This document shows positions 7,042 through 58,862 of a stretch of 64,000 bases of DNA, piece by piece (position 1 is the first letter of the stretch; every line of letters starts with the position of its first letter). Location: the NCBI GenBank assembly GCA_048499675.1, contig JASNZL010000008.1, positions 27-64,026 on the forward strand, written 5' to 3'. The DNA is from Candidatus Zambryskiibacteriota bacterium. Its GTDB lineage: Bacteria; Patescibacteriota; Minisyncoccia; Phycocordibacterales; WO2-35-19. Made by a program: the position numbers and the translations under genes. The notes beneath the pieces were generated by a model, which had not been told where the DNA came from, searched no databases, and saw nothing but the letters and a program-made list of their open reading frames with translations.

Positions 7042-8061
7042 TTAGAAAGGATTTTTAGCCCCTCTAATCTCAAAGTGGAGGTGGGCCCCTGTAACTTTTC
7101 CTGTTTTACCAACAGTACCTATTACTTCACCTTGTTTAACGGTATCACCAGCAGAGACATAGTTTGCATTATTGTGCGAATACAAAGTCTGAGTACCATT
7201 TGAGTGTTTTATAACAATATAATTACCATAACCACCGTTCCAACCACCAGTTCTACTGATTATAACTTCACCATCAGCTGATGCCATTATAGGAGTGCCT
7301 ACCGGAGCAGCAATATCAACCGCATTATATCCATGTATTCCTTGAGATTTTCTGCCCCCAACAATCGGTCTCAAATAATATCCTACATACTCTTTCAAAC
7401 CACTTCCAGAAGAAACCGCCTTGGAACCAGAAGATACAGAAGAAGTAACTATAGGCACAACTTCACCATCAGGAATAATGACAACAGACCCTATTTCTAG
7501 TTTTTGATCACTACTTAGGTTATTGTAAGCAATTATTTCTTCTTTATCGCCTTTGTATTTCTTTGCTAAAGAATCAATCGTGTCTCCTTTTTCTACAGTA
7601 TGTCTAACTCCAGAAATTGGGAGAATGACCAACGTTTCTCCAACCTTTAGAGTATTTGATTTTAAATCATTACCCCATTTAATGGTGTTTACTGTCACAT
7701 TAAACATCTCTGCGATTTGTGACAAAGTATCTCCTTCGTGTACAACATAAACGCTAATCTGGTCACTTGTTGGTTTTGCATTTTGGGAACTTTTTGTTCC
7801 AGAAGGACCAACTTCTGCCACCAAAGCATCTCCTTCAACATTTATAGGCTCCGGCAGACCTTCAGAAAGGGGAGTTGCAACCGCAACCAAGAGTGCCATA
7901 TTTTGAATATTCTTCGCAGGGAGAACATTTTCAGCACTAACGTTTCGAGAAAACATATTGGCAATTGCACCTACCAGACCAGCAGAAACAGATATTGGCA
8001 ATACCAAAGCCAGCATAACTAGGACTGCTTTTTTAAGCGATATTCTATTTTTAGAAACCAC
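7042..8061 (-). CDS. LysM-domain M23 (LytM-like) peptidoglycan endopeptidase
   Basis: signal/TM N-terminus, two LysM-like segments (HEGDTLSQIAEMFNVTVNTIKWGNDL; VEKGDTIDSLAKKYKG...IAYNNL), C-terminal HxxxD/ HLHFEIR M23 motifs. Confidence 0.85.
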   Translation of the reverse strand: MVSKNRISLKKAVLVMLALVLPISVSAGLVGAIANMFSRNVSAENVLPAKNIQNMALLVAVATPLSEGLPEPINVEGDALVAEVGPSGTKSSQNAKPTSDQISVYVVHEGDTLSQIAEMFNVTVNTIKWGNDLKSNTLKVGETLVILPISGVRHTVEKGDTIDSLAKKYKGDKEEIIAYNNLSSDQKLEIGSVVIIPDGEVVPIVTSSVSSGSKAVSSGSGLKEYVGYYLRPIVGGRKSQGIHGYNAVDIAAPVGTPIMASADGEVIISRTGGWNGGYGNYIVIKHSNGTQTLYSHNNANYVSAGDTVKQGEVIGTVGKTGKVTGAHLHFEIRGAKNPF

Positions 8062-12845: not shown

Positions 12846-13010
12846 CGAATTGGTTACGAATAGATACGAACAAGAAACGAGGTACGAAGTAGAATTAATC
12901 TAATTACACTAATTAACCTAATTATTCTAAATAATGACTAATTCTCAGTCCTAAATTTAAAATTGGGCATTGAGATTTATTTAGATTAATTAGAAATTAG
13001 AGTAATTACT

Positions 13011-13100
13011 TGTCCCGCGTAGTTTTAACGAAGTGGGACTTGTCCCGCGTAGTTTTAACGAAGTGGGACTTGTCCCGCGCAACTTCAGTGAAGTGGGAGA
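13011..13100. repeat. 3 x 30-bp perfect/near-perfect tandem repeats, each an internal hairpin (GTCCC...GGGAC), at the head of the secretion-like locus
   Basis: tgtcccgcgtagttttaacgaagtgggact repeated twice exactly, third copy tgtcccgcgcaacttcagtgaagtgggaga; no spacers. Confidence 0.8.
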
Positions 13101-13183
13101 ATAATTATTTTTGCCCACCTGTTCCCAAATCCTCTTTCACACTTTTTCTTTCTTTTAAGCTTAGTCTTGTTATAATTATTGTA

Positions 13184-14038
13184 ATGATGGCACCGAGTAA
13201 TAAAGCAATAAGCATAATTGTGATTACTTCAGCTTTTGTAATATTTGTTATTGTTGGTTTTGGTTTTGAAAAATCTTCTAACCTTGTTGGTAGTGCCGAC
13301 AATTTAATAGCTGGTGAAAAAATATTGCCCCCAACGAATCCAAATTGGCAAGAAGATTTAGATAAATTAAACATCCAGAGCAAAGATTTGAGCGGGGCAG
13401 AAACTATCCCAAATAGAGACACAGTGACCGAAGCTCTCTCTATCACACTCGCGTCAAATATTTTGACACATAAACAAAACAATACCCTCACCGAAAGAAC
13501 CGCCTTAGAACTAATAGACAAAAGCCTTGATTTTGTTGATAGTACAGCACCAAAAACAGATTCATTCAAAGTTACTGATTTAAATGTAGTCCCAAATAAC
13601 GGCCAAATCTCAATCAAACAATATGGCGAAAATCTAGGCCTAATCCTCAAAACAAGTAGGCCAGTAAATGCCAAAAATGAGATGCAAATAGTTGGAGATG
13701 CTATAGAAGCAAACAACCCATCAAGAATGAATGAGCTTGATCCTGTAATAATGAATTACCAAAACCTAACCGAAAAATTAGTAAAAATGCCTGTACCAGA
13801 GCTTTTTGTCAAAGCACACTTAGATATGGTTAATGGTTTAAACCAAATCCCATCTTCTTTAAAAGAAGTAAAAAAGGTTTTTGCTGATCCAATGACTGGT
13901 CTGATGTCACTTGAACTCTACAATGATGGCGTTAGTTTGTTTGCTTCAGCAATAAGCGCAACTGTTGAATTTATCAAGTCAAACAAAGTTATTTATGAAC
14001 AAGGCAGTGGTGGTTACTTCTTGTTGTACGGGATATAA
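13184..14038 (+). CDS. N-terminally membrane-anchored extracytoplasmic protein (first gene of the T4SS-like locus). The ATG start at 13184 is chosen; the ORF-track TTG start at 13010 would read through the tandem repeats.
   Basis: MMAPSNKAISIIVITSAFVIFVIVGFGF hydrophobic anchor followed by hydrophilic domain; no family recognised. Confidence 0.45.
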   Translation: MMAPSNKAISIIVITSAFVIFVIVGFGFEKSSNLVGSADNLIAGEKILPPTNPNWQEDLDKLNIQSKDLSGAETIPNRDTVTEALSITLASNILTHKQNNTLTERTALELIDKSLDFVDSTAPKTDSFKVTDLNVVPNNGQISIKQYGENLGLILKTSRPVNAKNEMQIVGDAIEANNPSRMNELDPVIMNYQNLTEKLVKMPVPELFVKAHLDMVNGLNQIPSSLKEVKKVFADPMTGLMSLELYNDGVSLFASAISATVEFIKSNKVIYEQGSGGYFLLYGI

Positions 14039-14222
14039 TTAAGACACGACACCAATAGTAGAGTAAAAAGTTTATAAAGGTGCAAGTTATAAAGTAACAA
14101 GACACAAAATGAGGCAACGAGATACGAGTTACGATATTAGAAATCACAAAACACAGGAAACAAATTACAAATAAAATACAAAAACTCTCGAATTTAAAGT
14201 TTAAAGGGCTTAAAAAGAAAAA

Positions 14223-15362
14223 ATGAAAAGTTTTAATAAAAAAATAATTTCAATACTTCTTGTTCTAATTTTTGTTTTTTCTCCCGTTTTCGCAAACAAA
14301 GCAGAAGCTCAGTGGGTAACATGGGACCCAGGCAACTTCGTACCAAATTGGGGTAAATTTATAAAAGACTGGGGTCTAGATACTTTAGCGTGGTCAATGG
14401 TAAACCTAGTAATAGAAAGAATGGCGGCCCAAACTGTTAATTGGATAAACAGCGGATTTGATGGTTCCCCAGGATTTATTACAGACACTGGAGGATTTTT
14501 TAGAGAAACAGCAGATGGTGTAGCCGGTCAATACATTTTTGAAAACCCAAACTTAAATTTTCTTTGCGGACCGATTAGTGCGAGAATACGATTATCCTTG
14601 GCTCAAAACTATATACAAGACAACGTGAGATGGCAATGTACTGTTACAGACGTTGTGGGCAATGTAGAAAACTTTATGAACGATTTTAGTCAAGGTGGTT
14701 GGGATGGATTTTTTGAACTAACACAAAGACAACAAAACAATCCTGTGGGTGCTTATATGCAAGCCGAGAACGAACTTTTTTGGAGAATAGCTAACAAACA
14801 AGGAACTTTGGATAAAGAGCTCAATTGGGGTCAGGGGATAATGTCATTCAAAACTTGTGACAGAGAACCTCCAAAAGTGGAGGCGAGTGGTGGTGTTCCA
14901 AACGCAGACGGTTCAATCAATTACATAACAACTCCTGGTGAATGTATAAAAGGGACAGAGAAAATTTCAACCCCCGGCTCAGTAATTCAGAGCAAACTAA
15001 ATGAAAGTTTGGGGATGGGTACAAAGAGACTTGAAGTTGCAGACGAAATAAACGAGATAGTAAGTGCTCTTATGAACCAACTTACTCTTCAAGTTATAGG
15101 TGGAGTAGGAAAAGGTCTTAGAAGTTTGAGTAGTCCAAGTACCGGCTCTTCAAATACCCAGACATTTGCTCAAAGACTGGCTTCAAGCACCGCTTCATCA
15201 ACTACAGACTACTTTGGCAATCAACAAGACACCTCAGCACTTGATACGCCACGACCTGATTTGAACCAATCACCAACAGGAGGAACTTTGGTATATCCAC
15301 CGGCACCGGCACCAGAACCGGAGCCATGCAATCCAAACATTGATCCAAATTGTACACCTTAA
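14223..15362 (+). CDS. secreted Trp-rich protein with signal peptide and Pro/Cys-rich C-terminus
   Basis: MKSFNKKIISILLVLIFVFSPVFANKAEA signal; C-terminus PAPAPEPEPCNPNIDPNCTP. Confidence 0.55.
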   Translation: MKSFNKKIISILLVLIFVFSPVFANKAEAQWVTWDPGNFVPNWGKFIKDWGLDTLAWSMVNLVIERMAAQTVNWINSGFDGSPGFITDTGGFFRETADGVAGQYIFENPNLNFLCGPISARIRLSLAQNYIQDNVRWQCTVTDVVGNVENFMNDFSQGGWDGFFELTQRQQNNPVGAYMQAENELFWRIANKQGTLDKELNWGQGIMSFKTCDREPPKVEASGGVPNADGSINYITTPGECIKGTEKISTPGSVIQSKLNESLGMGTKRLEVADEINEIVSALMNQLTLQVIGGVGKGLRSLSSPSTGSSNTQTFAQRLASSTASSTTDYFGNQQDTSALDTPRPDLNQSPTGGTLVYPPAPAPEPEPCNPNIDPNCTP

Positions 15363-15375
15363 GAATATTCAATAA

Positions 15376-17733
15376 ATGACAAAGAGATTTTTAATACTGG
15401 GAATATTTTTTGTAGTTTTAGCGGGAACAATATTTTCTCCTTTAGTTTCTTATGGGCAAAATACCGATGGAGAATGTACTCCTGCTCAAGTAGCGGCTGG
15501 TGGAATAACTCGTCGACCTGGAGATTTTGTAGATGGACGCTTAACAGTTAGCACTTATTGTCAAGTTGCAGGAAGTGCCCCAGATCAAGGAGTTCTAACT
15601 GAAACAGCGAAACAAGCAATGCAAATAGCTGGAGACGGACTTTTCAAGCCACTTTTTTTACCAATAGGCCACTTCCTACTTGGTGTTTCCTCAATCATTC
15701 TCATAACAACTGGTTGGATTTTTGACGGAATTGTAAGTATGACAATTCTCAATGTTGCAGAATACATTGGTACAGGCAGTGAAATGGGCGGAGCTATATC
15801 AATGGCGTGGGGCACACTCCGAGATGTGGCGAATATGTTTTTTATATTTGTCTTGATATTTGCAGCCCTCAAGTCTATGTTTGATTTGGATTTTGGAAAC
15901 GCAAACAAGACTATAAGAAACGTAATCATTGTTGCTCTTCTAATCAACTTCAGTCTTTTCTTTTCAAAAGTTGTAATAGACGCATCAAACGTTGTCGCTT
16001 TGGGTTTTTATAAAGCTATTTCACAAGCAAATACAGCATCTTTTCAAGCATCTGGACAATTAAACACAGGAATAGGTGGTACTGCAAATTTTGAAGGAAT
16101 ATCTGGCGGATATATGAGACTGCTTGGGCTCCAAACATTTTATGGTGCGAGCATTTTAAACGGTTTAAATGTTCAAAGTGTGATTGTGGTATCCGTAATG
16201 GGCTCTATTTTTATGTTGGTTGCCTCAGTAATATTTTTGATTTCTGGAGTTATGTTTGTCGCCCGTTTTGTCATACTTATTTTCCTTATGATACTCTCGC
16301 CTCTGGCGTTTATTGCCATAGCCATCCCCGGAGGTTCTCAAATATTTGATAAATGGAAAAGCGCCCTCATTGACCAGTCATTTTTTGCTCCTCTATTTTT
16401 TGCTTTGACTTGGGTTTCGTTTAAACTTGGGTCTGCCTTAATAACCAAAATGCCAACAGGAGATACAACTTGGGTTGATATTTTTGTTTCAAATCCAGCG
16501 AAACAAAAAGGAATAGTTGTGATTCTCTTGAATTATGTTTTAGTAATCGGATTTTCAATCGCCGCTCTCGTCTTTGCAAAACAAATGGCGAGCAGAACCG
16601 CCGGATTTACCCAAATCTCCGGTGCTATTGGTTCTGGAGCAGTTGGTGGCGCCGCATTTATTGGTAGACAAACAATCGGACGAGGTGCCAATATGATTTC
16701 TGAAAACAAAAGAGAGGCTTGGTCTAAAACCACTCTTGGTAGAGCTGGTCTCTGGATGGCAGATAAAGGCAGGAGTGCAAGTTTCAACGTGGGAGGTCTT
16801 GCAGACACAAAGCTTGGTAAAATGACTGGTGCAAATAAAATACTAGATCCAAATATAATTGGCAAAACTACTGGTGTAGGTGGATTTGCAAAGGCGACAG
16901 AAGAAAAAGCAAAGAAAAAAGCTGAATATGCTAAGAGGGTATACGGACAAACAAGCGACGAAAATGAAGCTCTAAGAAGAATGGAGTTGGCTTACAAGGG
17001 AGGTTTTGATGAAAACGGCGAGCCAATAAAGGGGCTTGAGAATGAATTGAGTGAGATGAAGAGACAAGAAGAAGAGGTAATAAAAAAATCCAGAAAAGAA
17101 AATGTTGAATTAGCTCAAAAGGCCGAGGAAGAAGCTCAAACAAAGGTTGAAGAAAACAGGAGAGCATTAGAAAAAGCAAAAACATCGATGATGCCGGAGC
17201 AAATAAAAGTAGCAAAAATGAAGCTTGAAGAATCCGAAAGAGATTTAGAATTAAATAAGATAAAACACAAAGAAGCCATACAAAAACAAACTTCTAAAAT
17301 TGAGGATGATGAATTTTCTGAAGAATTAAAGACTTTGGAGAGAGAAGCAAACGAAGCAAAAATAAATATAGAAAAACAAAAAAATCTTGGTAAGGTAAGA
17401 CAACTTGAATACGCAAAAAGATTAGAAAAAACACCTCTCGTTGCAGAAGGATTGGGTGCAGCATCTGGAATATATGGTGGCGCTGCACTTGGTGCATTAT
17501 TTGGACCCTTAGGAATACTTATTGGAGGGGCGGCAGGCGCAGCAACAGGAGCGCATCTTGCTGGAAAATTGGGTAGCGGGGGCGTTGCTTGGGCAGGAAA
17601 TAAGAGTGCTTCGAGGAGTGTCCGCGCCCTTGCCGAAGGAAAAGAAAAAAAAGATAAAAAGAAACTGCAAGAAGATTTGGCTAAAGCGCTTGGAATAGAA
17701 GAGGATAAAAAAGAAGACCAACAACAAAATTAA
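15376..17733 (+). CDS. large polytopic membrane protein, VirB6/TrbL-like candidate, with a long C-terminal coiled-coil/Gly-rich extension
   Basis: signal peptide, >=7 hydrophobic helices in the central ~400 aa, charged coiled-coil tail (KRQEEEVIKKSRKENVELAQKAEEEAQTK) and GxxxG-rich end; architecture rather than motif identity. Confidence 0.45.
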   Translation: MTKRFLILGIFFVVLAGTIFSPLVSYGQNTDGECTPAQVAAGGITRRPGDFVDGRLTVSTYCQVAGSAPDQGVLTETAKQAMQIAGDGLFKPLFLPIGHFLLGVSSIILITTGWIFDGIVSMTILNVAEYIGTGSEMGGAISMAWGTLRDVANMFFIFVLIFAALKSMFDLDFGNANKTIRNVIIVALLINFSLFFSKVVIDASNVVALGFYKAISQANTASFQASGQLNTGIGGTANFEGISGGYMRLLGLQTFYGASILNGLNVQSVIVVSVMGSIFMLVASVIFLISGVMFVARFVILIFLMILSPLAFIAIAIPGGSQIFDKWKSALIDQSFFAPLFFALTWVSFKLGSALITKMPTGDTTWVDIFVSNPAKQKGIVVILLNYVLVIGFSIAALVFAKQMASRTAGFTQISGAIGSGAVGGAAFIGRQTIGRGANMISENKREAWSKTTLGRAGLWMADKGRSASFNVGGLADTKLGKMTGANKILDPNIIGKTTGVGGFAKATEEKAKKKAEYAKRVYGQTSDENEALRRMELAYKGGFDENGEPIKGLENELSEMKRQEEEVIKKSRKENVELAQKAEEEAQTKVEENRRALEKAKTSMMPEQIKVAKMKLEESERDLELNKIKHKEAIQKQTSKIEDDEFSEELKTLEREANEAKINIEKQKNLGKVRQLEYAKRLEKTPLVAEGLGAASGIYGGAALGALFGPLGILIGGAAGAATGAHLAGKLGSGGVAWAGNKSASRSVRALAEGKEKKDKKKLQEDLAKALGIEEDKKEDQQQN

Positions 17734-17743
17734 CCGAAACAAA

Positions 17744-18325
17744 ATGGATAATACAAAAGAATTATTGATACAAAAAATAGAATCTTTACCCAAAGCATAT
17801 AAAAGCTATATTTTGAGTAAGGAATGGGTTAAAAATTTATCTGAAACTTTTTTAGGTTTTACTTTTGATGAATGGCAAATAACTTCTATTGAAAATGAAG
17901 TATTTATTGTACTTGTTGGTTTAGAGCCATACACAAATCTATCAGAAAATATTTCAAAAGAAGCGGAAATTGACATAGAAACAGCAAACAAAATAGCGGT
18001 GGGTATAATAAATAAAATACTTGGACCAATAACAGAAAAATTTAGAAAAGATTTTGGTATCCCCGAAGAAACAAAACAGCCAGAAAAAACAAACCCGATA
18101 GGAAAATCATTTGAAGAAACAATATTAAACCAAGCGAGAGGGATGATGCCTGCCCGCCACGCTTCGCAAAGCGATGCGGGCGGGCCTGCCCGTCCTGCGA
18201 ACGAAGATACGAGTTACGAGATACGAGATGAGGCAAATAAAAAAATAGAGGAAAACAACAAACCAAATGTTCCATTACCTAATTATTCTGGAGGAAACGA
18301 TCCGTATAGAGAACCAATTCAATAA
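17744..18325 (+). CDS. acidic hypothetical protein carrying an in-frame GC-rich hairpin + heptamer-repeat insertion (MPARHASQSDAGGPARPANEDTSYEIRDE)
   Basis: ORF continuity through the insertion at 18149-18228. Confidence 0.5.
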   Translation: MDNTKELLIQKIESLPKAYKSYILSKEWVKNLSETFLGFTFDEWQITSIENEVFIVLVGLEPYTNLSENISKEAEIDIETANKIAVGIINKILGPITEKFRKDFGIPEETKQPEKTNPIGKSFEETILNQARGMMPARHASQSDAGGPARPANEDTSYEIRDEANKKIEENNKPNVPLPNYSGGNDPYREPIQ

Positions 18326-18454
18326 TTACCTAATTCCTAATTGCCCTAATTAATCTAAACAAATCCAAAGGCCTAATTTTAAAATTGGGAATTGTAGATT
18401 AGTCATTATTTAGAATAATTAGTATAATTAGATTAATTAGAATAATTTAACCCT

Positions 18455-18889
18455 ATGCGTTTTCAAATACCACAATTTATTGATGTAGAAGACCAAATAC
18501 TTGGCCCTTTTACTTTAAAACAGTTTATTTACATTGCAGGAGGCGCAAGCGTTGCTTTGATTTTTGTAACCCTACTTGGTGTTTTTTGGGGACTTTTAGT
18601 TTCTTCTCCAATTGTAATTCTCGCTCTAGCTCTGGCTTTTTACAAAATAAACAACAGACCGTTTATAAACACCCTCGAGTCAGCATTTAAATATATGATC
18701 AAAGACAAACTCTATATTTGGCACAAAAAAGAGCCTGAGGAAAAAGAAGCAGACTCTAGTACCGACAAAAAATTTAGCTCGCTTGTTGTGCCCAACTTAT
18801 CCCAAAGTAAACTCAAGGATATGAACTGGGAATTAGATGTGAAGAAGAAGGAAAACGAGTTACGAGATACGAGTAACGAGATACGATAA
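18455..18889 (+). CDS. small two-TM membrane protein, VirB3/PrgI-like candidate; C-terminus encoded by heptamer repeats (ENELRDTSNEIR)
   Basis: MRFQIPQFIDVEDQILGPFTLKQFIYIAGG followed by two hydrophobic helices; lies immediately upstream of the VirB4 gene, as VirB3 does. Confidence 0.5.
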   Translation: MRFQIPQFIDVEDQILGPFTLKQFIYIAGGASVALIFVTLLGVFWGLLVSSPIVILALALAFYKINNRPFINTLESAFKYMIKDKLYIWHKKEPEEKEADSSTDKKFSSLVVPNLSQSKLKDMNWELDVKKKENELRDTSNEIR

Positions 18890-19192
18890 AAAGATTTTGA
18901 AAATTTAAAATTTAATAAGAGTTAAAACTTAAAAGCGTTTTTGTTTATATAAAAAATTTTAACAGTTAACTCTTTTCATTCCTAGGGTTGTTTTAATCTT
19001 TAAATGATTAATTCAAAATAAAGAATGAATATAACTAATAACAAAGGATATAATACGGTGTATTTAAATTTTTTTATTTTATAAGTGGTGCAAATCAAAA
19101 AATAGGATTATAATCATTAATATAGATTTGGTTGTTTATTTTAAAAATTAATTCGTACTTCGTTACTCGTACCTCGTAACTCGTCCATTTTT

Positions 19193-19813
19193 ATGAAGAA
19201 TGCTACACAAAAATTTGTACCAATAGATGATGTCAGAGATGGCATTGTTATTTTGAAAGAAGGTGGAATGAGAGGGGTCCTTATGGCTTCTTCAATAAAC
19301 TTTTCTCTAAAATCAAACGACGAGAGACAAGCAATCCTGATGCAGTTTCAAGATTTTCTCAATTCTTTGGATTTTTCAATTCAAATACTTGTTCAGTCCA
19401 GAAGATTAGATATTAGACCTTATGTTGCACTGCTTGAGGGACGGCACAAAGAACAAACAAACGACCTTATGAAAATTCAGATAGAGCAATACATACAATT
19501 CGTAAAAAGCTTTACCGAGAGCACAAACATAATGACCAAAAACTTTTTTATTGTCATACCTTATGATGGGGCAATTATCTCTTCAAAAAAAGGAGTATTA
19601 TCTGGGTTTGGGAGTCAAAATAAATCAAAAGAATCACAAGAAGAAGATTTTGAAGAGAGGAAAAACCAACTTGAACAAAGAATGGCAGTGGTTGAACAGG
19701 GACTCGTCCGATGTGGAGTTAGAGTCGCAAAACTCGGAACAGACGAAGTGGTAGAATTATTTTATAAGATATTTAATCCAGGGGAGTCAGAGAAACCTAT
19801 TAAAATTTCGTAG
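19193..19813 (+). CDS. VirB4/TrbE/CagE-family ATPase, N-terminal domain only (5' fragment of a split gene)
   Basis: KFVPIDDVRDGIVILKEGGMRGVLMASSINFSLKSNDERQAILMQFQDFLNSLDFSIQILVQSRRLD and ...NFFIVIPYDG match the conserved N-domain of Gram-positive-type VirB4 proteins. Confidence 0.7.
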   Translation: MKNATQKFVPIDDVRDGIVILKEGGMRGVLMASSINFSLKSNDERQAILMQFQDFLNSLDFSIQILVQSRRLDIRPYVALLEGRHKEQTNDLMKIQIEQYIQFVKSFTESTNIMTKNFFIVIPYDGAIISSKKGVLSGFGSQNKSKESQEEDFEERKNQLEQRMAVVEQGLVRCGVRVAKLGTDEVVELFYKIFNPGESEKPIKIS

Positions 19814-19838
19814 AAATTTTAATTGTAAATAAAACAAA

Positions 19839-20258
19839 ATGAGTTACGAGTTACGAGTTACGAGTTACGAAACAAAAGAGAAAATAAACACTTTTCATGA
19901 TTTAAGAGTGTGGAAAGAAGCACATAATCTGGTTATATCAATTTATAAGACAACTAAAAATTTTCCAAAGGATGAGCTTTTTGGGTTAACTAACCAAATA
20001 AGGAGGTCTGCGGTCTCAATAACATCAAATTTAGCTGAAGGGTTTGGTAGAGAAACAATAAAGGATCGGGTACATTTTTATATTATATCCTTAGGATCAT
20101 TAAACGAAATCCAGAATCAGCTTCTCATTTCAAAAGATGTAGGATACCTAAGTTTAGAAAATTGGAGTAAGCTTGAAGAACAGATTATAATTGTAAACAA
20201 GATGCTTAATGGTTTAATAAAAAGATCCAGATCGTACTTCGTTACTCGTACCTCGTAA
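19839..20258 (+). CDS. four-helix-bundle protein of the 23S rRNA intervening-sequence protein family
   Basis: DLRVWKEAHNLVISIYKTTKNFPKDELFGLTNQIRRSAVSITSNLAEGFGR...SLGSLNEIQNQLLISKDVGYL matches the family consensus. Confidence 0.8.
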   Translation: MSYELRVTSYETKEKINTFHDLRVWKEAHNLVISIYKTTKNFPKDELFGLTNQIRRSAVSITSNLAEGFGRETIKDRVHFYIISLGSLNEIQNQLLISKDVGYLSLENWSKLEEQIIIVNKMLNGLIKRSRSYFVTRTS

Positions 20259-20265
20259 CTCGTTC
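19841..20265. mobile_element. inverted-repeat-flanked insertion splitting the VirB4 gene; carries a four-helix-bundle protein gene
   Basis: left arm GAGTTACGAGTTACGAGTTACGAGTTACGAA (19841-19873) and right arm TCGTACTTCGTTACTCGTACCTCGTAACTC (20231-20265) are near-perfect reverse complements; the arms encode the N- and C-termini of the cargo ORF. Confidence 0.55.
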
Positions 20266-20272
20266 TAAATAT

Positions 20273-22078
20273 ATGTTTGATTTTTTTAAGAAAAAAGAAA
20301 AAGAAAGTTTAACGGCTATTTCAATATTGCCGAAATCTATTACTGAAAGCTCGGAGCTAGAACTACAAGATATTTTGGCACCAAGTGCCTTAAAGGTTAA
20401 TGCAAAAGAGTTAAACCTTGGTGAAAAATTAGTTAGAAGTTTTTTTGTTATATCTTATCCTCGTTTTCTTAATGAAGATTGGTTTGCTCCGATTATAAAT
20501 ATGGATAAAATGTTTGATATTTCAATATTTATACATCCATTAGAAACGGCAAAAATATTAAGAAATTTCCAAAAAAAGGTCGCGGAGGTGCAGAGCCAAA
20601 TAAGAATGAGAGAGGAAAAAGGTTTGGTGAGAGACCCAATGCTTGATACGGCATACCAAGACCTAGAAAACCTGCGTGACGAGCTCCAGCAGGCCCAAGA
20701 AAAAATGTTTGAGGTTGGTTTATATATTTCAGTCTATGCAAACAACAGCGAAGAGTTGGACAAAGTTGGATCAGAAATAAAATCCATATTGGAATCAAAA
20801 CTTGTATACGTAAAACCAGCGCTTTTCCAACAAGAACAAGGTTTTGAGAGTATTCTTCCAATTGCAAAAGATGAGCTAAATGTACACTCAAAAATAAATT
20901 CTTCACCACTTTCAAGTATTTTCCCATTTATATCTTTTGACCTAACTTCTGACAAAGGAATACTCTATGGTATCAACAGGCACAATTCTTCTTTGATTTT
21001 GTTTGATAGATTTTCATTAGAAAACTATAACTCTATTACTTTTGCAAAATCTGGTTCTGGTAAATCATATGCCACAAAATTGGAAATAATAAGGACACTA
21101 ATGTTTGACACAGAAGTAATTGTTATTGACCCAGAAAACGAATATGAATATATGGCCGAAGCGATAGGGGGTAGGTATTTTAATATTTCTCTAAACTCCG
21201 ACCACCACATCAACCCATTTGAACTTCCTGTCCCTGGTGAAGACGAGTCCGGCGCTTCAGTTTTGAGAAGTAAGATTATAAATCTAGTGGGATTGTTTAG
21301 AATCATGATGGGCGGTCTTACAGCTGAAGAAGATGCGATTATAGACCGCGCAATCACAGAAACCTATGCCCTCAAAGATATTACTCCGGATTCTGATTTT
21401 GCAAATGTTGAACCCCCACTTCTTTCTGATTTTGAAATGGTATTGAGTGGTATGGAAGGAGGGGAATCATTGGCCCAAAGACTAACCAAGTACACAAAAG
21501 GAACTTGGTCCAACTTTATAAACAGACCTTCAAACATAGACATAAACAAAAAATTTGTCGTCTTTTCTATTAGAGATATGGAGGACGAACTCAAACCCGT
21601 TGCGATGTATATCGTGACCCACTATATCTGGAACGCTATCAGGAGAAATATCAAAAAGAGACTTCTTGTTATTGACGAAGCTTGGTGGATGATGAAATCA
21701 GAAGATACTGCGTCATTTTTGCTTTCGCTTGCAAAAAGAGGTAGGAAATATTACTTGGGACTTGCCACAATCACACAGGATGTTGATGACTTTTTGAAAT
21801 CACCTTACGGAACTCCCATAATTACAAACTCATCAATTCAAGTACTCTTGAAACAGTCACCAACTTCAATAGACAGACTTCAAGAAGTTTTCAATCTAAC
21901 AGACGAAGAAAAATATCTACTTATAGAATCTGGAGTAGGGGAAGGAATATTCTTTGCTGGTCTCAAACACGTAGCTATCAAAATAATTGCTTCTTATACA
22001 GAAGATCAAATAATCACATCTGACCCATCTCAAATTTTGGCTATGAAAAAAGCCAAAAGAGAAGCAGAACTTGAATAA
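20273..22078 (+). CDS. VirB4/TrbE/CagE-family ATPase, central + C-terminal ATPase domains (3' part of the split gene)
   Basis: FFVISYPRFLNEDWF...DISIFIHP (CagE_TrbE_VirB region), Walker A AKSGSGKSY, Walker B LLVIDEAWWMM, RGRKYYLGLATITQDVDD. Confidence 0.85.
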   Translation: MFDFFKKKEKESLTAISILPKSITESSELELQDILAPSALKVNAKELNLGEKLVRSFFVISYPRFLNEDWFAPIINMDKMFDISIFIHPLETAKILRNFQKKVAEVQSQIRMREEKGLVRDPMLDTAYQDLENLRDELQQAQEKMFEVGLYISVYANNSEELDKVGSEIKSILESKLVYVKPALFQQEQGFESILPIAKDELNVHSKINSSPLSSIFPFISFDLTSDKGILYGINRHNSSLILFDRFSLENYNSITFAKSGSGKSYATKLEIIRTLMFDTEVIVIDPENEYEYMAEAIGGRYFNISLNSDHHINPFELPVPGEDESGASVLRSKIINLVGLFRIMMGGLTAEEDAIIDRAITETYALKDITPDSDFANVEPPLLSDFEMVLSGMEGGESLAQRLTKYTKGTWSNFINRPSNIDINKKFVVFSIRDMEDELKPVAMYIVTHYIWNAIRRNIKKRLLVIDEAWWMMKSEDTASFLLSLAKRGRKYYLGLATITQDVDDFLKSPYGTPIITNSSIQVLLKQSPTSIDRLQEVFNLTDEEKYLLIESGVGEGIFFAGLKHVAIKIIASYTEDQIITSDPSQILAMKKAKREAELE

Positions 22079-22353
22079 AGAAGGGGTAGAAGCTCGTAAA
22101 ATTGAAAAAATTATTCTAATTTCTAATTAACCTAATTATCCTAAAAAAATCCTAAATTCTAAATTCTAAATTTGGAAGTTTTAAATTTTGGATTTTGAAT
22201 TTCTGATTTGCTTGCCCTGTAAAAGCTTGCTTTTATTCGAGTTTAGTATTTCGGATTTAGAATTTAGAATTTTATCGTATCTCGTACTTCGTAACTCGTA
22301 CTTCGTTTGCCTTCATATCGTGTTTTATTTTAAACTCTTGATATAATATCCTT

Positions 22354-23361
22354 ATGGATGAAGCTATAGAACAAAATGCTGGCATACAAAGAGAACCTCT
22401 AATAAGGCCTGTTCGTAAGTATCCAAGAGAAAAAGAAGTAAAACATAGAATTAAAATATGGATGGCTTACTGCCTTATTGTTTTTGCTGTAATGATAGAC
22501 TTCGCTGAGTTGGGCACTACTTATATTGGAGTTGTGGTTATTGGTGGGATTTTAAGCAATCTAATTGCAGCTTTTGCCACAACCGTTTTTTGGATTTGGT
22601 TTTTGATACTAGGAGTCCCTTATTCTGCTAATACCAAAAGGTTTGGTGTAATGGTGGTGACTCACGTTGCAGAGTATGTCCCCGTGGCTGATGCTTTGCC
22701 GTTTTGGTTTATGTGGACAATAGGTATGGCGGTTACTATAGGAATGGTGAGGATGGAGGATAAGGGAGAAAAACCAACAATTCTTGGTGGGATATTAGAA
22801 ATATTATCGATAACAGCACCATCTCCAGGTATTTCCATTTTAAAAAAAATTACCAGCTCTCAATTGGTTCTTAATAAAATACATAATGTAAAGTACGCTA
22901 AACAAATTAATAGTATGGATAGATTAGGGAGTGTAGAATCTGGCACAAAAGGTAATTCCAAAACATTAGATTTAAGAAATAAAAATACTCACTCTGGTTA
23001 TTCTCTAAAAAAACGGCCCCCTACGAACCAATCTGCTCAATCGCAACAAAAATTGAATAGATTACAATCTGACATTAGTAGATATCAAGCAGAGATACAA
23101 CAAAAAGAAAGAGAGTTGGCACAAAAAGAACAACACTACAAGGAAAATGAGGACGGTTTTACTCGTGGCCTCGAAATAATTCGTTCAACCAGAGATATTA
23201 ACAAAGAAGAAGAAGCCAGATACTTTAGGGAACATAGTTCAAGAATGACCTCTTTCTACCAAGACATAGACAAACTAAAATCCAGCATAGCAGGACTTAA
23301 AAAACTAATCTCTCAATTACAAAATGAAATATCGATATCCCAATCAAAAACTGTAACTTAA
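22354..23361 (+). CDS. membrane protein (3-4 TM) with long C-terminal coiled coil; unknown function, in T4SS-like locus
   Basis: hydrophobic helices in residues ~45-140, heptad-rich tail. Confidence 0.45.
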   Translation: MDEAIEQNAGIQREPLIRPVRKYPREKEVKHRIKIWMAYCLIVFAVMIDFAELGTTYIGVVVIGGILSNLIAAFATTVFWIWFLILGVPYSANTKRFGVMVVTHVAEYVPVADALPFWFMWTIGMAVTIGMVRMEDKGEKPTILGGILEILSITAPSPGISILKKITSSQLVLNKIHNVKYAKQINSMDRLGSVESGTKGNSKTLDLRNKNTHSGYSLKKRPPTNQSAQSQQKLNRLQSDISRYQAEIQQKERELAQKEQHYKENEDGFTRGLEIIRSTRDINKEEEARYFREHSSRMTSFYQDIDKLKSSIAGLKKLISQLQNEISISQSKTVT

Positions 23362-23509
23362 GACAAATGAAATCTCCTCAAACCAAACCTCAAGCAACAA
23401 ATACAAGCAATGTATTAAATCTAAAAAAGGTTGCCTAAATTGTTTTCTTATCTAATTTCGTTTCCACAAAACCAAAACAAAAAAATAACTACCGTAGTAT
23501 AATTAAACT

Positions 23510-24493
23510 ATGATAAAAAATATCGGAATTATAATAACTTTTTTACTCTTGGTACCTGTCTTTACCTTTGCTCAACAAATAAATATTCCTTTTGCACTGT
23601 CAAACGAGCTTAATGTTGATGTAAACCCAGATTATCCAAGACCAAACGAGAATACAACCATTTCACTATCACTTTATTCTGATGATTTGACTACAGCAAC
23701 CATCTCTTGGTATCAAGACGACGAACTAGTTTTGAGTGGTATAGGCAAGACTATTCACCAATTCACAATGGGCAATGTGGGCGAGGAAACAAAAATACGA
23801 ATAGTGATTAATTTGCTTAACGGAATTAGTTTTTCAAAACAACTAAGCTTTACGCCAGCAAGCGTTGATCTTGTTTGGGAAGCAGAAAGCTATGTACACC
23901 CATTTTACAAAGGCAAGGCGCTACACCCAAGACAAGGATCTATAAAGGTGGTAGCAGTGCCCGAGTTTTATAGAAATGGAAACAAAGTTCCGGCTGAAAA
24001 TTTGGTCTACACATGGACCAATGGTTTAAAGGCAGTCCAAAACCAATCAGGATACGGCAGGAATGTTGTTTTTTTGGACGGTTCTCTTTTTGGTAGAACC
24101 GAGAGAATAGAAGTGATAGTGGTCGACCCTATAAACAATCTGGTTGCTAGTCAAGTAATTAACATAGCACCAACTGCACCGGAGATACTTTTTTACGAAA
24201 ATAATCCCTATTATGGTTACTTATTTGATGTTGCGATTCCAAATCAATTCAAACTTGTTTCAGATGAGGTAGAGATAGTTGCTTCACCTTATTTCTTTAC
24301 AAAGGAAGACGTGCCTTTTTTCAATTACAACTGGCGCATCAACAACAGTTCCGTTCCTTCTATAGCTGACTCAATGAGTGCAATTTTTAGAAGACCAGAA
24401 GAGAGTGGACGTTCACAAGTTTCTTTGGAAATTGCAAATCAAAGCCGATTATTACAACAAGCACAAAAAAGTTTTTCAATAAATTTTGATTAA
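23510..24493 (+). CDS. secreted protein with signal peptide; unknown function
   Basis: MIKNIGIIITFLLLVPVFTFAQQ signal peptide. Confidence 0.5.
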   Translation: MIKNIGIIITFLLLVPVFTFAQQINIPFALSNELNVDVNPDYPRPNENTTISLSLYSDDLTTATISWYQDDELVLSGIGKTIHQFTMGNVGEETKIRIVINLLNGISFSKQLSFTPASVDLVWEAESYVHPFYKGKALHPRQGSIKVVAVPEFYRNGNKVPAENLVYTWTNGLKAVQNQSGYGRNVVFLDGSLFGRTERIEVIVVDPINNLVASQVINIAPTAPEILFYENNPYYGYLFDVAIPNQFKLVSDEVEIVASPYFFTKEDVPFFNYNWRINNSSVPSIADSMSAIFRRPEESGRSQVSLEIANQSRLLQQAQKSFSINFD

Positions 24494-24496
24494 AAT

Positions 24497-25501
24497 ATGA
24501 AAAAAACATTTATTAATACAACCTTTATCATTTTTGCATTTGCACTTCTTTTGTTCTCTCCTTTTTATATAGAGGTTGCACTTGCACAACCAACACCAAC
24601 CCCAACATCTGCCACAACAGCTGAGGATCCTTATACCCTCCTAGCACCAATTCCTTGCGTTGGCGGTAATTGCTCTGGTGATTTGGCAACAAACACAACC
24701 TTACCTCAATACGTAAAAGGCTTTATCCAATTATCAATTGGTATTTCCGCTGTTTTTGCAATAGTTATGATAGTTATCGGCGGGTTCCAATATATGACTT
24801 CAGACGCTCTGCAAGGCAAACAAGATGGTAAAACCAGAATTAAAAACTCAGCAATAGGAATATTACTTATAGCAGCTTCTTTTATAATTTTACAAACAAT
24901 AAATCCAGACTTGCTTGACATAAAACTAAAAATTGATGCGAGTCCGACCGCGCAGAGTGGTACCCAGACAGGAACACTTGTTGCCGGCGGGACTTGCACA
25001 ACCTGTGTACCACTTGATAGTTCTTTATCTTCGGTTCTTAAGCGCGGCCAAGGAACACAAATACTACCAGATACCAACACAAAGCTTGTCGCATTAAACA
25101 ACACTCTGAAAGAAGAAAATATTTCATGGTGGATTTCTGAAGCGTACCCACCAACAGTAAAGCATGCAAATGTTTGTCATTCTGCTGGCACCTGCATTGA
25201 CGCAAATTTCACAAATACTAGTAAGCCTAGGACAAGTGATTTTGAATCTCTAACTGAACCAGAAAGGACTCAGCATGCAAAGAATATAAATAGCTTTATC
25301 GACTCGGCGGAAAGTGCAAACTTAAGAGCAATATATGAGGTACCAACTAGCGCCAGGAGAGATCTTTTAATACAAGCAGGGGTTCCAGCAAATAGAATAA
25401 TTACTGTTATAAAATCAGACGGCGCACCTATAGAGCCACACTTTTCGGTATATAATTGTTCTGCCCACCCAGAAAGCTGTAGAACCTTGCCAAGACCATA
25501 A
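24497..25501 (+). CDS. signal peptide + two closely spaced TM helices (VirB2/TrbC-pilin-like core) followed by a Cys-rich extracellular domain
   Basis: after signal: QYVKGFIQLSIGISAVFAIVMIVIGGFQYM - short polar loop (SDALQGKQDGKTRIKNS) - AIGILLIAASFIILQTI; topology resembles T4SS pilins; the C-terminal 180 aa contain 9 Cys. Confidence 0.4.
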   Translation: MKKTFINTTFIIFAFALLLFSPFYIEVALAQPTPTPTSATTAEDPYTLLAPIPCVGGNCSGDLATNTTLPQYVKGFIQLSIGISAVFAIVMIVIGGFQYMTSDALQGKQDGKTRIKNSAIGILLIAASFIILQTINPDLLDIKLKIDASPTAQSGTQTGTLVAGGTCTTCVPLDSSLSSVLKRGQGTQILPDTNTKLVALNNTLKEENISWWISEAYPPTVKHANVCHSAGTCIDANFTNTSKPRTSDFESLTEPERTQHAKNINSFIDSAESANLRAIYEVPTSARRDLLIQAGVPANRIITVIKSDGAPIEPHFSVYNCSAHPESCRTLPRP

Positions 25502-25506
25502 TAAAC

Positions 25507-26766
25507 ATGAAAAAAATATTACTTATAGTTGGAATAATATTGATAATCGGAATAGTAATATTCTTTATGTTTGGTATGGGAGGATCACAACAAGAAGGGG
25601 AGAGTAGGATTGGTTTTTCTTTACAAGAATTTTTTCCTTTTGGTAGAAGCGGGGATAGTAGCACGACCGCCACCGAAAATACATTCCCAATAAATGAAAA
25701 CGAAAGTTTTGGTGGCTCTGAAACGGACGAAAACAAACCGATACCAAGACTAAGAAAACTTTCTGGGGAACCTGTAGCTGGGTCAATAATGTTTAATGTG
25801 GGGACAACAAGCGTTGTAAGGTTTATAGAAAAAGGCACAGGTAATGTATATGAGGCAAGATCGGATTCAAACAAAATAGAGCGACTAACAAACACAACCA
25901 TTCCAAAAATTATAAGGGCTTTTTGGTTGCCAAATGGCACAGGTTTTTTGGCACAAACTCTAATTCCAAACACAGAAATAATAGAGACAAGTTTTGTTAA
26001 ATTAAACCAAAGAAACGGCGAGGATTCATTAGGTGAAGTCTTGACCCCTTATGTAACATCTATCGCCAAACTACCCACAGGGATAAAAGAAATATCTATC
26101 AGACCAGATGGTGCCAAGATTTTTTATTACATACAAAATAGGAATTATACAAATTGGTATATATCAAATCCTGACGGAACAGGGAGTGAGATGGTTTATG
26201 CTCACAACCTAGCCGAGTGGTTACCTAAATGGATATCTACAAACACTATTATTATGCAGACCAAGAGTAGTTATATTGCTCCATCTTACACATACACATT
26301 TAGTCCACAAACAAAAATATTAAAAAAACAAGGTTTTGGTTATAACGGGCTTTCACTTTTACCAAAACAAGATAATTTGTTTAGTTTAATATCAATCGGT
26401 GGCATCAACACAGATTTGTATTTACTTAACAACAATACCTTTGAAACAAGTGCCTTGGTATCAAGTGCTATAGCAGAAAAATGTGTCTGGTCAAAAACGG
26501 AGGATATGTTTATTTACTGCGCTGTTCCAAACTCACTACCAAACAGCACCTATCCTGATTCTTGGTACAAAGGAATTATAAGGACTGAGGATTCAATTAG
26601 AAAGATAGATTTAAATAACAACATTTTTTACAATGTTATTGATCTAAAGAGGGAATCGGAAGAAGAAATAGATGTTGTTGATGTTTTAATTTCTTCAGAC
26701 GACACCCATCTCATATTCAGGAATAAAACCGATGGATTTTTGTGGATACTTCGAGTAGAAGACTAG
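25507..26766 (+). CDS. N-terminally anchored extracytoplasmic protein, possibly beta-propeller-like; unknown
   Basis: MKKILLIVGIILIIGIVIFFMFG anchor; repetitive beta-rich segments. Confidence 0.45.
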   Translation: MKKILLIVGIILIIGIVIFFMFGMGGSQQEGESRIGFSLQEFFPFGRSGDSSTTATENTFPINENESFGGSETDENKPIPRLRKLSGEPVAGSIMFNVGTTSVVRFIEKGTGNVYEARSDSNKIERLTNTTIPKIIRAFWLPNGTGFLAQTLIPNTEIIETSFVKLNQRNGEDSLGEVLTPYVTSIAKLPTGIKEISIRPDGAKIFYYIQNRNYTNWYISNPDGTGSEMVYAHNLAEWLPKWISTNTIIMQTKSSYIAPSYTYTFSPQTKILKKQGFGYNGLSLLPKQDNLFSLISIGGINTDLYLLNNNTFETSALVSSAIAEKCVWSKTEDMFIYCAVPNSLPNSTYPDSWYKGIIRTEDSIRKIDLNNNIFYNVIDLKRESEEEIDVVDVLISSDDTHLIFRNKTDGFLWILRVED

Positions 26767-28650: not shown

Positions 28651-29994
28651 ATGGACACTCAAGAACTTTGGAACAACGTTTTAGCTAAAATAGAATCATC
28701 TGTTTCTAAAGCGAACTTTGCAACTTGGTTTAAAGACACTAAAATATCAGGTTTTGACGACGGTATAGTGTATTTGAGTGTACCAAACACATTTGTTCAA
28801 GAGTGGTTAACAAAAAAATTTCACCAAATAGTCCTTAAATTTCTCAGGGAGTCATCTGATTCTATTCATGGCTTGGAGTATGTAATAAAAGAAGAAGTAA
28901 AAACAAAAAATCAATATATTCCTACAAAAGGATCTTCCCCAACTAGAGAACTACCACTTTCCGAACTATATGTGAACAAGGAAGATAATTTGAATCCAAG
29001 ATACACGTTTGAAACATTTGTTGTTGGACCTTTTAATGAACTCGCGTTTGCAGCAGCTCAAGCTGTAATAAAAAATCCTGGCGTTACATACAACCCATTT
29101 TTTATTTATGGAAATACAGGACACGGCAAAACTCACCTTATACAGGCAATAGGAAATGCAATAAAAACTAATGACCCAACAAAAAAAATATTTTACTTCA
29201 CATCAGAAAAATTTTTAAACGACTATGTAGCGTCTGTACAATCCAACAAAGTTACCCAATTCAAGGAAAAATACAGAAAGTATGATGTTTTGATTATGGA
29301 TGATGTTCAATTCTTGTCTGGTAAAGAAAAAACTCAAGAGGAATTGTTCCATTTGTTCAACATAATGAGAGAGTCTAACAAACACATAGTATTTTCTTGT
29401 GATAAACACCCTAATTTTGTTACAGGACTAGAAGACAGGCTAAAATCAAGGTTTTCTTCTGGGATGGTTTTGGATATTCCTGCACCAGACCACGAATCTC
29501 GGGTGGCAATAATAAAAGCTAAGTGCTCTAGCATAAACCTTTATCTAGGAGACGATATAATTGATTATTTGGCTGACTCCATAAAAGGTAATATTAGGGA
29601 CTTAGAAGGGGTTATAAACCTAATAGTTTGCCAAACAGAGACAAAAAACAGGACACTTACATTAAACGAAATAAAAGATTTGGTTAAAAACAGTATCAAA
29701 CAAAAAAAATTGCTTTCCTATAAAGAAGTAGTAAAAATAATATCTGATTTTTATAAAATAGAAGAAGAGTCAATCTACGAAAAAACCAGAAAGAAGGAGG
29801 TTATAAAACCAAGACAAATAATAATGTATATTTTGCGAGAAGATTTTAGTATTTCTTATCCTTCAATAGGGGAGAAATTGGGAGGAAGAGACCACACAAC
29901 GGTTATCCACTCATGCGAGAAAATAAAAAAAGAAATCAAAGTTGATAATCTTTTAATGAAAGAAATTCAAGAAATCAGAGGTATGATAGGTTAA
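28651..29994 (+). CDS. dnaA: chromosomal replication initiator DnaA
   Basis: Walker A GNTGHGKTHL, Walker B VLIMDDVQFL, C-terminal DNA-binding domain. Confidence 0.95.
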   Translation: MDTQELWNNVLAKIESSVSKANFATWFKDTKISGFDDGIVYLSVPNTFVQEWLTKKFHQIVLKFLRESSDSIHGLEYVIKEEVKTKNQYIPTKGSSPTRELPLSELYVNKEDNLNPRYTFETFVVGPFNELAFAAAQAVIKNPGVTYNPFFIYGNTGHGKTHLIQAIGNAIKTNDPTKKIFYFTSEKFLNDYVASVQSNKVTQFKEKYRKYDVLIMDDVQFLSGKEKTQEELFHLFNIMRESNKHIVFSCDKHPNFVTGLEDRLKSRFSSGMVLDIPAPDHESRVAIIKAKCSSINLYLGDDIIDYLADSIKGNIRDLEGVINLIVCQTETKNRTLTLNEIKDLVKNSIKQKKLLSYKEVVKIISDFYKIEEESIYEKTRKKEVIKPRQIIMYILREDFSISYPSIGEKLGGRDHTTVIHSCEKIKKEIKVDNLLMKEIQEIRGMIG

Positions 29995-41129: not shown

Positions 41130-41627
41130 ATGCAATATACATCTAAATCAGTCGAAGAGACAGAAGAAATAGCAAAGGATTTTATAAACGATTTTATTTT
41201 ACAGGAGAAAAATAGAGACAAAGCTTTTGTGGTGGGTCTCTATGGCGACTTGGGGGCAGGCAAAACAACTTTTATGAAATGTTTCGCAAAAAATTTGGGT
41301 GTAAAAGAAACTATTCAAAGCCCAACATTTGTCATAATGAAGAAATACGAGTTACGAAGTACGAGTAACGAAGAACGAGAAAAAAAGGAATCTGATTTAT
41401 CGTACCTCGTACCTCGTACTTCGTATGCCTGTTTATATCACATTGATGCTTATAGAATAGAAAAAGACGAGGAAATGTTAAAATTAGGATGGGATGAAAT
41501 AATACACAACCCGAATAATTTAGTTTTTGTAGAATGGCCGGAAATTATAAAAGATATAATGCCACCACATACTAAAATATTTTTTGAACATATAAAAGAA
41601 AACGAGAGGGAAATAAAAATAATTTAA
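41130..41627 (+). CDS. tsaE: tRNA threonylcarbamoyladenosine biosynthesis ATPase TsaE, carrying an in-frame ~80-bp palindromic insertion
   Basis: P-loop GLYGDLGAGKTTF, SPTFVIMKKY, YHIDAYRI. The segment ELRSTSNEEREKKESDLSYLVPRTSYACL is encoded by inverted TACGAG-type arms (41346-41426). Confidence 0.8.
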   Translation: MQYTSKSVEETEEIAKDFINDFILQEKNRDKAFVVGLYGDLGAGKTTFMKCFAKNLGVKETIQSPTFVIMKKYELRSTSNEEREKKESDLSYLVPRTSYACLYHIDAYRIEKDEEMLKLGWDEIIHNPNNLVFVEWPEIIKDIMPPHTKIFFEHIKENEREIKII

Positions 41628-58809: not shown

Positions 58810-58831
58810 TGTCACGTTGGATAACACCTAC

Positions 58832-58862
58832 AACGCGCGAGCTTACCACTCGCGCGTTTTTC
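58832..58862 (+). terminator. rho-independent terminator
   Basis: AACGCGCGAGcttaccaCTCGCGCGTTTTT. Confidence 0.8.

Follow-up and report, generated by a model that had tools for sequence, protein, structure and literature searches.

A probably non-conjugative type IV secretion gene cluster beside the replication origin of a Paceibacteria-like genome

Introduction

What does a type IV secretion system (T4SS) do when its genes are accompanied by neither a relaxase nor a coupling protein (T4CP), and does such a gene cluster represent a new kind of system? The question is raised by a stretch of 64,000 nucleotides from Candidatus Zambryskiibacteriota bacterium (assembly GCA_048499675.1, contig JASNZL010000008.1, positions 27 to 64,026; hereafter the window), in which co-directional T4SS-like genes span positions 13184-26766 between ksgA and yidC/rnpA/dnaA/dnaN. 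Our analysis indicates that this is very probably a chromosomal, non-conjugative T4SS gene cluster of the ultrasmall Patescibacteria, adjoining the replication origin of a Paceibacteria/Zambryskibacteria-like genome. An initial annotation of the same DNA had proposed a non-conjugative host-interaction T4SS of episymbiotic bacteria with reduced genomes, and this matches the published Patescibacteria T4SS (PMC12102498, PMC10633639).

In Southlakia epibionticum (SEML1_0006-0019), Wang and co-workers (Wang et al., 2023; Cell, PMC10633639) found a pilin-bearing T4SS that is essential and has no recognisable coupling protein or relaxase. According to transposon sequencing (Tn-seq), this species requires its T4SS genes, including the pilins, for growing as an epibiont; comEC is dispensable for its viability (PMC10633639, PMC12857230). 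Across 3,035 surveyed genomes of Patescibacteria (Quiñonero-Coronel et al., 2025; Microb Genom, PMC12102498), VirB4 formed a monophyletic clade nested in MPF_FATA. TrsD was the commonest associated component, accompanied by PrgI/VirB3, VirB6 and PF18895/VirB2-like pilins, and the T4SS of Paceibacteria was located close to dnaA, dnaN, rnpA, ksgA and rpmH. A review from 2025 counts the Patescibacteria systems among the newest T4SS members (PMC12857230). The system had therefore been described between 2023 and 2025, with its pilin and TrsD, its missing relaxase and its location close to dnaA, and the locus studied here is real but ordinary, except for a pilin fused to a putative cell-wall peptidase.

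Results

Translocon genes of monoderm affinity

Profile and fold searches assigned five of the twelve + strand genes of the cluster, which encode VirB3, a TrsD-like protein, VirB4, a VirB6-like protein and a pilin. The relationships to VirB3/PrgI, VirB4, VirB2 and VirB6 suggested initially were thereby confirmed, and no membrane open reading frame (ORF) fell into an unrelated family. All coordinates below refer to the + strand of the window unless stated otherwise.

VirB4 (601 amino acids, 20273-22078) comprises the end of the N-terminal domain and the P-loop C-terminal domain. It matched the NCBIfam model conju_CD1110 at 4e-115 (385.8 bits against a cutoff of 325, profile positions 180-733 of 752) as well as the Pfam models TraG P-loop (2.6e-27) and CagE_TrbE_VirB. 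Its monoderm affinity is evident from the search against PDB, since the best solved relative was the VirB4 of a Firmicute (4AG5, 8.4e-42) and TrwK reached 5.7e-7. Upstream of virB4, positions 19193-19813 encode a TrsD-like protein of 206 amino acids, a homologue of the N-terminal domain found in VirB4 of the monoderm type. Matches were obtained to the NCBIfam models VirB4_plasma (7.5e-11, profile positions 101-233 of 894), CD1110 (8.9e-8, positions 2-118 of 752) and TrsD (1.3e-7). Its homologues carry PF26593 (TraC-like), and its profile found no match in PDB.

As the TrsD-like protein and VirB4 cover CD1110 positions 2-118 and 180-733, respectively, the gene pair equals one full-length VirB4. 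For comparison we assembled 85 loci, 80 of them species-level representatives and five exact look-ups. The trsD-like gene adjoins virB4 in 82 of the 85 loci, and it is a separate ORF of 205-222 amino acids in all 78 species loci in which it could be delimited; in two relatives (L001 and L004) the gap between both genes measures merely 33-95 bp. The two-gene arrangement is the ancestral state and normal for the lineage. Thus, the 'split VirB4' of the initial annotation indeed consists of two parts (206 and 601 amino acids), but no gene has been disrupted. In the locus under study, the spacer between both genes carries a PF05635 gene (see below), and its insertion was considered as the cause of the split. 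This was rejected because the TrsD-like ORF is separate in all 78 loci, mostly without a cassette at that place, and because the cassette occupies other spacers in other species.

The VirB3/PrgI-like protein (18455-18889) has two transmembrane helices and matched Pfam PrgI at 1.9e-9 (38.4 bits against a cutoff of 27); homologues occur in 81 of the 85 loci. ORF3 (15376-17733) encodes a VirB6/TrbL-like polytopic membrane protein of 785 amino acids. Residues 1-470 are polytopic and are followed by a coiled-coil tail, cytoplasmic and rich in Lys and Glu, and, at the C-terminus, by a glycine zipper. By sequence, ORF3 gave no Pfam, NCBIfam or plasmid match and, in the transmembrane domain, no PDB match. 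Only the fold search was informative: the natural proteins closest to its AlphaFold2 model were VirB6/TrwI and DotA, which supports a VirB6-like assignment.

A conserved chromosomal position

The same gene order, ksgA-ORF1-ORF2-ORF3-(ORF4)-prgI-trsD-like-virB4-(ORF8)-ORF9-pilin-ORF11-yidC/rnpA-dnaA-dnaN, was found everywhere, and synteny is thus kept in about 80 species. VirB4 has thousands of homologues with 88-92% identity, all of about 600 amino acids, in metagenome-assembled genomes of Paceibacterota/Parcubacteria/Zambryskibacteria. Across about 80 Paceibacteria species the protein is 78-92% identical and the most conserved one of the region: the median identity amounts to 81% for VirB4, 64% for the TrsD-like protein, 62% for DnaA, 54% for UvrD, 49% for PrgI, 46% for DnaN, 45% for YidC and 25-35% for the envelope parts. 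VirB4 is under strong purifying selection and more constrained than the replication initiator DnaA, which favours a core function and disfavours a decaying mobile element. The components had been expected to be new members of low similarity; instead, their families are conserved across these species, and the system has been published (2023-2025).

Pfam and NCBIfam scans bore out that the locus contains no VirD4/FtsK-like T4CP, relaxase, replication or integrase gene. Neither were T4CP, relaxase or integrase genes found among the scanned ORFs of at least 165 amino acids in the 64-kb window; these scans covered every ORF of at least 430 amino acids and, of those between 165 and 430, most of the larger ones. 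The lack of a coupling protein thus applies to the locus and the window. A linked relaxase, T4CP, integrase or replication module, as expected for a conjugative T4SS or an integrative and conjugative element (ICE), was present neither in the locus nor in the window. The surroundings are ordinary chromosome of about 34% GC, and the GC content of the T4SS genes resembles that of their neighbours. Because of the common gene order in about 80 species, the neighbour-like GC content and the absence of integrase, relaxase and T4CP from the 64 kb, we regard the locus as chromosomal and not mobile. Classification as a mobile element or ICE was rejected on synteny and gene content.

A pilin with a candidate peptidase domain

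The VirB2-like pilin (24497-25501) consists of a signal peptide, two transmembrane helices and a Cys-rich extracytoplasmic domain, with eight Cys in total. It matched PF18895 at 8.8e-8 (32.6 bits against a cutoff of 26.6) and the NCBIfam model Mbov_0395, a pilin-like protein of Mycoplasma ICE, at 1.4e-7. A single pilin gene is present at the locus. Pilin genes were found in 69 of the 85 loci, and many of the remaining loci are truncated.

The extension comprises residues 167-334 (168 amino acids, 24995-25498) and occurs in the pilins of 19 of the 85 fetched loci, representing about 16 distinct species. A profile built from 15 sequences of this C-terminal domain matched the N-terminal domains of Sonic hedgehog (Shh) and Indian hedgehog (6.6e-5 to 1e-3) and nothing else significantly. 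With a trimmed profile of 131 sequences, a hedgehog fragment scored 22.3 bits compared with at most 8.8 bits in 2000 shuffles. The full-length alignment of the 131 sequences found no match in PDB, probably owing to poor alignment. Pfam has no model for the domain, and a search against phages gave no match. In a representative set of 1.84 billion proteins the domain has 471 relatives, and 124 of the 131 examined proteins are T4SS pilins with an N-terminal PF18895 domain.

Among the 131 sequences, five positions show no or hardly any variation, namely H223, H228, D235, E281 and H315 in the numbering of the pilin. From the profile alignment and the known residues of Shh, we take them to correspond to Shh H135, H141, D148, E177 and H183, presumably the zinc-binding and catalytic residues of hedgehog/LAS peptidases. 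The features of LAS enzymes, i.e. H-x6-D, a distal His and a catalytic Glu/His in a hedgehog-N-like domain, are thus present at the sequence level. Probably, then, the C-terminal domain adopts a hedgehog/LAS-type zinc-peptidase-like fold. By analogy with VirB2 topology it would be extracytoplasmic, which the many Cys fit, and these data suggest a pilin-borne cell-wall peptidase. That it is an active LAS peptidoglycan peptidase is a tentative proposal, which we consider rather doubtful at present.

Further envelope and accessory proteins

ORF9 (23510-24493), a core component present in 82 of the 85 loci, encodes a secreted beta-rich protein with a signal peptide. It probably consists of tandem Ig-like domains, as suggested by weak signals (Hoc in PDB at 0.003; BiPBP_C, Ig_3 and PKD_3 in a few homologues). 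ORF11 (25507-26766; 69 of the 85 loci) is a beta-rich extracytoplasmic protein anchored by a transmembrane helix at residues 4-22 and possibly forms a TolB/PD40-like beta-propeller, with a weak TolB match (0.014) and DUF5050 and PD40 in single homologues.

ORF2 (14223-15362; 62 of the 85 loci) is predicted to be secreted and mostly helical, with a signal peptide and ten Trp. Its Pfam match to DUF4141 (24 bits) stayed below the cutoff of 30, and the same family is annotated in about half of its homologues. TrbJ of NCBIfam was matched at E 0.006 over residues 6-42 only, and neither the PDB profile search nor tblastn against plasmids gave a match. The AlphaFold2 model was poor (predicted local distance difference test score 61), and Foldseek returned only meaningless helical matches. 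An analogue of VirB5/TrbJ with a DUF4141/TrbJ-like N-terminal motif is possible.

ORF1 (13184-14038, about 284 amino acids) is a fast-evolving, N-terminally membrane-anchored protein without Pfam or PDB profile matches. Homologues occupy the same position in 41 of the 85 loci, and some of them have bacterial TSP3 repeats. Its start had been placed at 13010/13011; the TTG at 13010 is spurious and reads through a 30-bp tandem repeat, and ATG 13184 is the likely start. The repeat unit (TTGTCCCGCGTAGTTTTAACGAAGTGGGAC) is present in 2.5 copies at 13011-13100, just upstream of ORF1, forms a short hairpin per unit and adds the spurious N-terminus 'SRVVLTKWDL' to ORF1 as listed. ORF4 (17744-18325) encodes a poorly conserved, acidic soluble protein of 193 amino acids. 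ORF8 (22354-23361) is a membrane protein with three to four transmembrane helices and a coiled-coil tail; its relatives comprise 136-146 amino acids and share the transmembrane part alone. Hydropathy and composition checks agreed with the anchors, signal peptides, transmembrane segments, Trp and Cys contents and acidity that had been ascribed to the ORFs.

Repeats and PF05635 cassettes within the operon

The eleven + strand genes listed initially were all present, and a twelfth had gone unlisted. It lies at 19839-20258 between the trsD-like gene and virB4 and encodes a four-helix-bundle protein of family PF05635 (23S rRNA intervening sequence protein/Avd-like; Pfam 2.3e-38, TIGR02436 4.2e-36). 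The gene is part of a cassette (19839-20264) with inverted arms of (TACGAGN)n repeats at 19845-19872 and 20230-20264, whose predicted RNA folds into a terminal stem of 30-35 bp (z = -3.1). A second, ORF-less cassette (18854-19185) has inverted (TACGAGN)n arms at 18854-18888 and 19151-19185 with about 260 AT-rich nucleotides between them, and in its predicted RNA the paired arms form a stem of about 35 bp (z = -7.8).

The strict TACGAGNTACGAG pattern, with one mismatch allowed, yielded 25 matches compared with 0.09 expected by chance. A hotspot holding 8 of 12 repeat copies, as noted earlier, is about right: a loose heptamer scan found 12 arrays, seven inside 13011-26766 and one upstream at 12876. 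Some arrays lie within coding sequence: the left arm of the ORF-less cassette specifies the 11 C-terminal residues of PrgI, another array supplies the N-terminal residues of the PF05635 protein, and a third (18208-18228, in the 3' part of ORF4) contributes to the tail of the ORF4 protein. An AT-rich motif (CTAATTAACCTAATTATYCTAAA...TCCTAAATT) is shared by 12895-12960, upstream of ORF1, and 22115-22180, downstream of virB4. Since both copies have a TACGA[GA]N array close by, they may be what is left of additional cassettes. Outside the locus, a TACGAGN palindrome (41346-41425) is inserted in frame within tsaE (41130-41627), adding about 28 residues, and the TsaE model matches in two stretches flanking it. 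This resembles the Rickettsia palindromic elements.

In relatives (loci L001, L004, L011, L025, L027, L031, L036, L043, L045, L073, L075 and L077), PF05635 genes occupy the spacer preceding prgI, the prgI-trsD spacer or the trsD-virB4 spacer. The cassettes of other species likewise have inverted arms of repeats of about 7 nucleotides, with a species-specific unit, e.g. GTATTAT, TGAATWA or TAGGAAN. The PF05635 cassette is a secondary insertion in the trsD-virB4 spacer and no part of the T4SS. Intervening sequences of 23S rRNA carry a PF05635 ORF within a long stem, reside in the 23S rRNA and are excised by RNase III. The cassette at 19839-20264 resembles them in that long inverted arms, able to form a stem, enclose its PF05635 ORF. 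However, the cassettes of the T4SS operon are located in mRNA spacers and have arms made of species-varying 7-nucleotide arrays. They might be mobile modules for RNase III processing that have inserted repeatedly into the spacers of this highly conserved operon, although, like the activity of the pilin domain, we consider this separate proposal more likely wrong than right.

Genomic surroundings

Upstream, the locus is preceded by ftsH, tmRNA, infC, a LysM-M23 peptidase gene, uvrD, ubiA and ksgA; downstream it is followed by yidC, probable rnpA, dnaA, dnaN and the genes for a class A penicillin-binding protein, tyrS, ruvB, pilB, tsaE, polA and others. rnpA was assigned by its position and by tblastn matches in relatives, and dnaA (28651-29994) lies 1.9 kb downstream of the locus, outside the cluster. 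A scan for promoters and terminators was uninformative, with fewer sites than in shuffled sequences.

The LysM-LysM-Peptidase_M23 protein (7042-8061, - strand) is encoded about 5 kb upstream of the T4SS and is conserved in relatives (L001). In the survey of 2025, the VirB1 homologues include proteins with LysM/M23 domains and show an association with virB4 in Paceibacteria (PMC12102498); the protein may equally be a general cell-division hydrolase. At the ends of the window (56000-64000 and 1-2000), the GC content climbs to 0.44-0.52, compared with about 0.34 elsewhere. Genes in the high-GC end encode a chorismate mutase-methyltransferase fusion, a GNAT protein, an AstE/AspA-like protein and a second class I tRNA synthetase of the W/Y type. 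This could represent a foreign island or an assembly join.

Discussion

The combination of genes described above places the locus, with high confidence as far as sequence comparison goes, in the Patescibacteria-clade T4SS derived from monoderm MPF_FATA, with the layout of Paceibacteria/Zambryskibacteria. With this clade it shares VirB4 and an adjacent TrsD-like protein, PrgI/VirB3, VirB6 and a PF18895 pilin, the lack of a relaxase and of a nearby T4CP and, as in Paceibacteria, the chromosomal position near dnaA/dnaN/rnpA/ksgA. It has a single pilin gene in contrast to the pilin arrays of Saccharimonadia and Microgenomatia, and it differs from the described Patescibacteria T4SS by the LAS-type peptidase-like C-terminal domain on the pilin and by PF05635 cassettes in the operon. 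The LAS-type pilin fusion and the cassettes, neither of which Quiñonero-Coronel et al. (2025) mention, may be new, and so may the in-frame palindrome of tsaE.

Among the MPF_FATA systems (Clostridioides CTn CD1110, pGO1 Trs, pCF10 Prg/Pcf, Mycoplasma ICE), VirB4 reaches the cutoff of the CD1110 model, and the TrsD-like protein, PrgI and the Mbov_0395-like pilin match models of these elements; outer-membrane core genes are absent. Unlike those systems, the locus has no relaxase, T4CP (PcfC/TcpA), oriT or integrase, does not reside on a mobile element, contains a VirB2-like pilin, which is generally absent in Gram-positive systems, and shows no recognisable PrgK/VirB1 or PrgL/VirB8. In lacking a relaxase and a dedicated T4CP and in having VirB4 as the main motor, it resembles Bordetella Ptl, Brucella VirB, Helicobacter ComB and archaeal Ced. 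However, those are diderm or archaeal systems with VirB7/VirB9/VirB10 or Ced parts, whereas the affinity of the present locus is to monoderm conjugation systems.

How might such an apparatus work? PrgI/VirB3, the two-gene VirB4 ATPase and the VirB6-like channel with its long cytoplasmic tail would form an inner-membrane translocon. Judging from the families involved, VirB4 would dislocate the pilin from the membrane and thereby power the assembly of a filament or conduit at the cell surface, with secreted and anchored proteins traversing or decorating the wall. The LAS-type domain of the pilin, possibly together with other envelope parts, might open the peptidoglycan for the apparatus or attack the wall of the host. 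The system would then mediate contact-dependent transfer at the interface with a host bacterium, which we consider the most likely role because relaxase and T4CP are missing and essentiality has been shown in Saccharimonadia. Protein (effector) export, and not conjugative DNA transfer, is its most likely use, to which we would give about an even chance.

Several points weigh against this interpretation. No substrate, effector or signal was identified at the locus. A review calls the role 'completely unknown' and names effector delivery or uptake as candidates (PMC11665869). Essentiality was demonstrated in another class, the Saccharimonadia (PMC10633639). Furthermore, a VirD4-like gene may exist elsewhere in this genome, ORF1, ORF2, ORF4 and ORF8 are without an assigned role, and none of ORF1, ORF4, ORF8, ORF9 and ORF11 gave a profile match to VirB8/PrgL or VirB1/PrgK.

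The system could also work in the opposite direction, as an uptake machine similar to ComB of H. pylori or archaeal Ced that pulls in host DNA, nucleotides or other macromolecules. ComB and Ced likewise operate without relaxase and T4CP, Patescibacteria lack nucleotide synthesis, and in Southlakia comEC is dispensable and the T4SS essential; reviewers propose the T4SS as an alternative route (PMC11665869). VirB4 also shows a weak similarity to CedB (3e-8 over 70 residues), but this is confined to the generic P-loop region, and the best VirB4 matches are conjugative exporters (CD1110, Mycoplasma ICE). As, in addition, the locus contains no DNA-binding or ComEC-like partner and the sequence gives no indication of direction, we regard import as unlikely, though worth keeping in mind.

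Even less probable is a function in adhesion only, in which VirB4, VirB3 and VirB6 would build a filament of VirB2 type that serves to hold on to the host but conducts nothing. The conserved pilin, the secreted Ig-like or propeller-like proteins, which could be adhesins, and the absence of a substrate-recruiting T4CP nearby would fit such a function. On the other hand, type IV pili already provide adhesion and motility (PMC12857230), and pilB is present in the window (38138-39817). Moreover, Ptl and Brucella VirB do secrete without a T4CP (PMC12102498), and an ATPase conserved to this extreme degree points to a central role in physiology. That the locus is a remnant or domesticated ICE mobilising DNA with a relaxase and T4CP encoded elsewhere is barely credible: the VirB4 family (CD1110), TrsD and PrgI do derive from monoderm conjugative elements, and VirD4-like genes occur in most Patescibacteria genomes, mostly far from virB4 (PMC12102498), but relaxases were found in only 103 of the 3,035 genomes (PMC12102498), integrase, attachment repeats, relaxase and T4CP are missing from the 64 kb, in about 80 species the locus stays at one chromosomal site, flanked by the same set of housekeeping genes, and VirB4 evolves more slowly than DnaA, unlike a decaying element.

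Contact-dependent transfer at the host interface thus remains the reading that we prefer. The locus adds no new kind of system; it is a clean Paceibacteria example of the Patescibacteria T4SS, one of few machines whose essential role in epibiotic life has been demonstrated. The leads worth following are the pilin-LAS fusion and the heptamer-armed PF05635 cassettes only. If the pilin domain is an active peptidase, every filament subunit, or the membrane pool of pilin, would be a cell-wall-cutting enzyme, which would either stand in for the absent VirB1 or enable the pilus to drill through the host wall. The pilin-peptidase fusion therefore offers a concrete lead on how the apparatus crosses cell walls.

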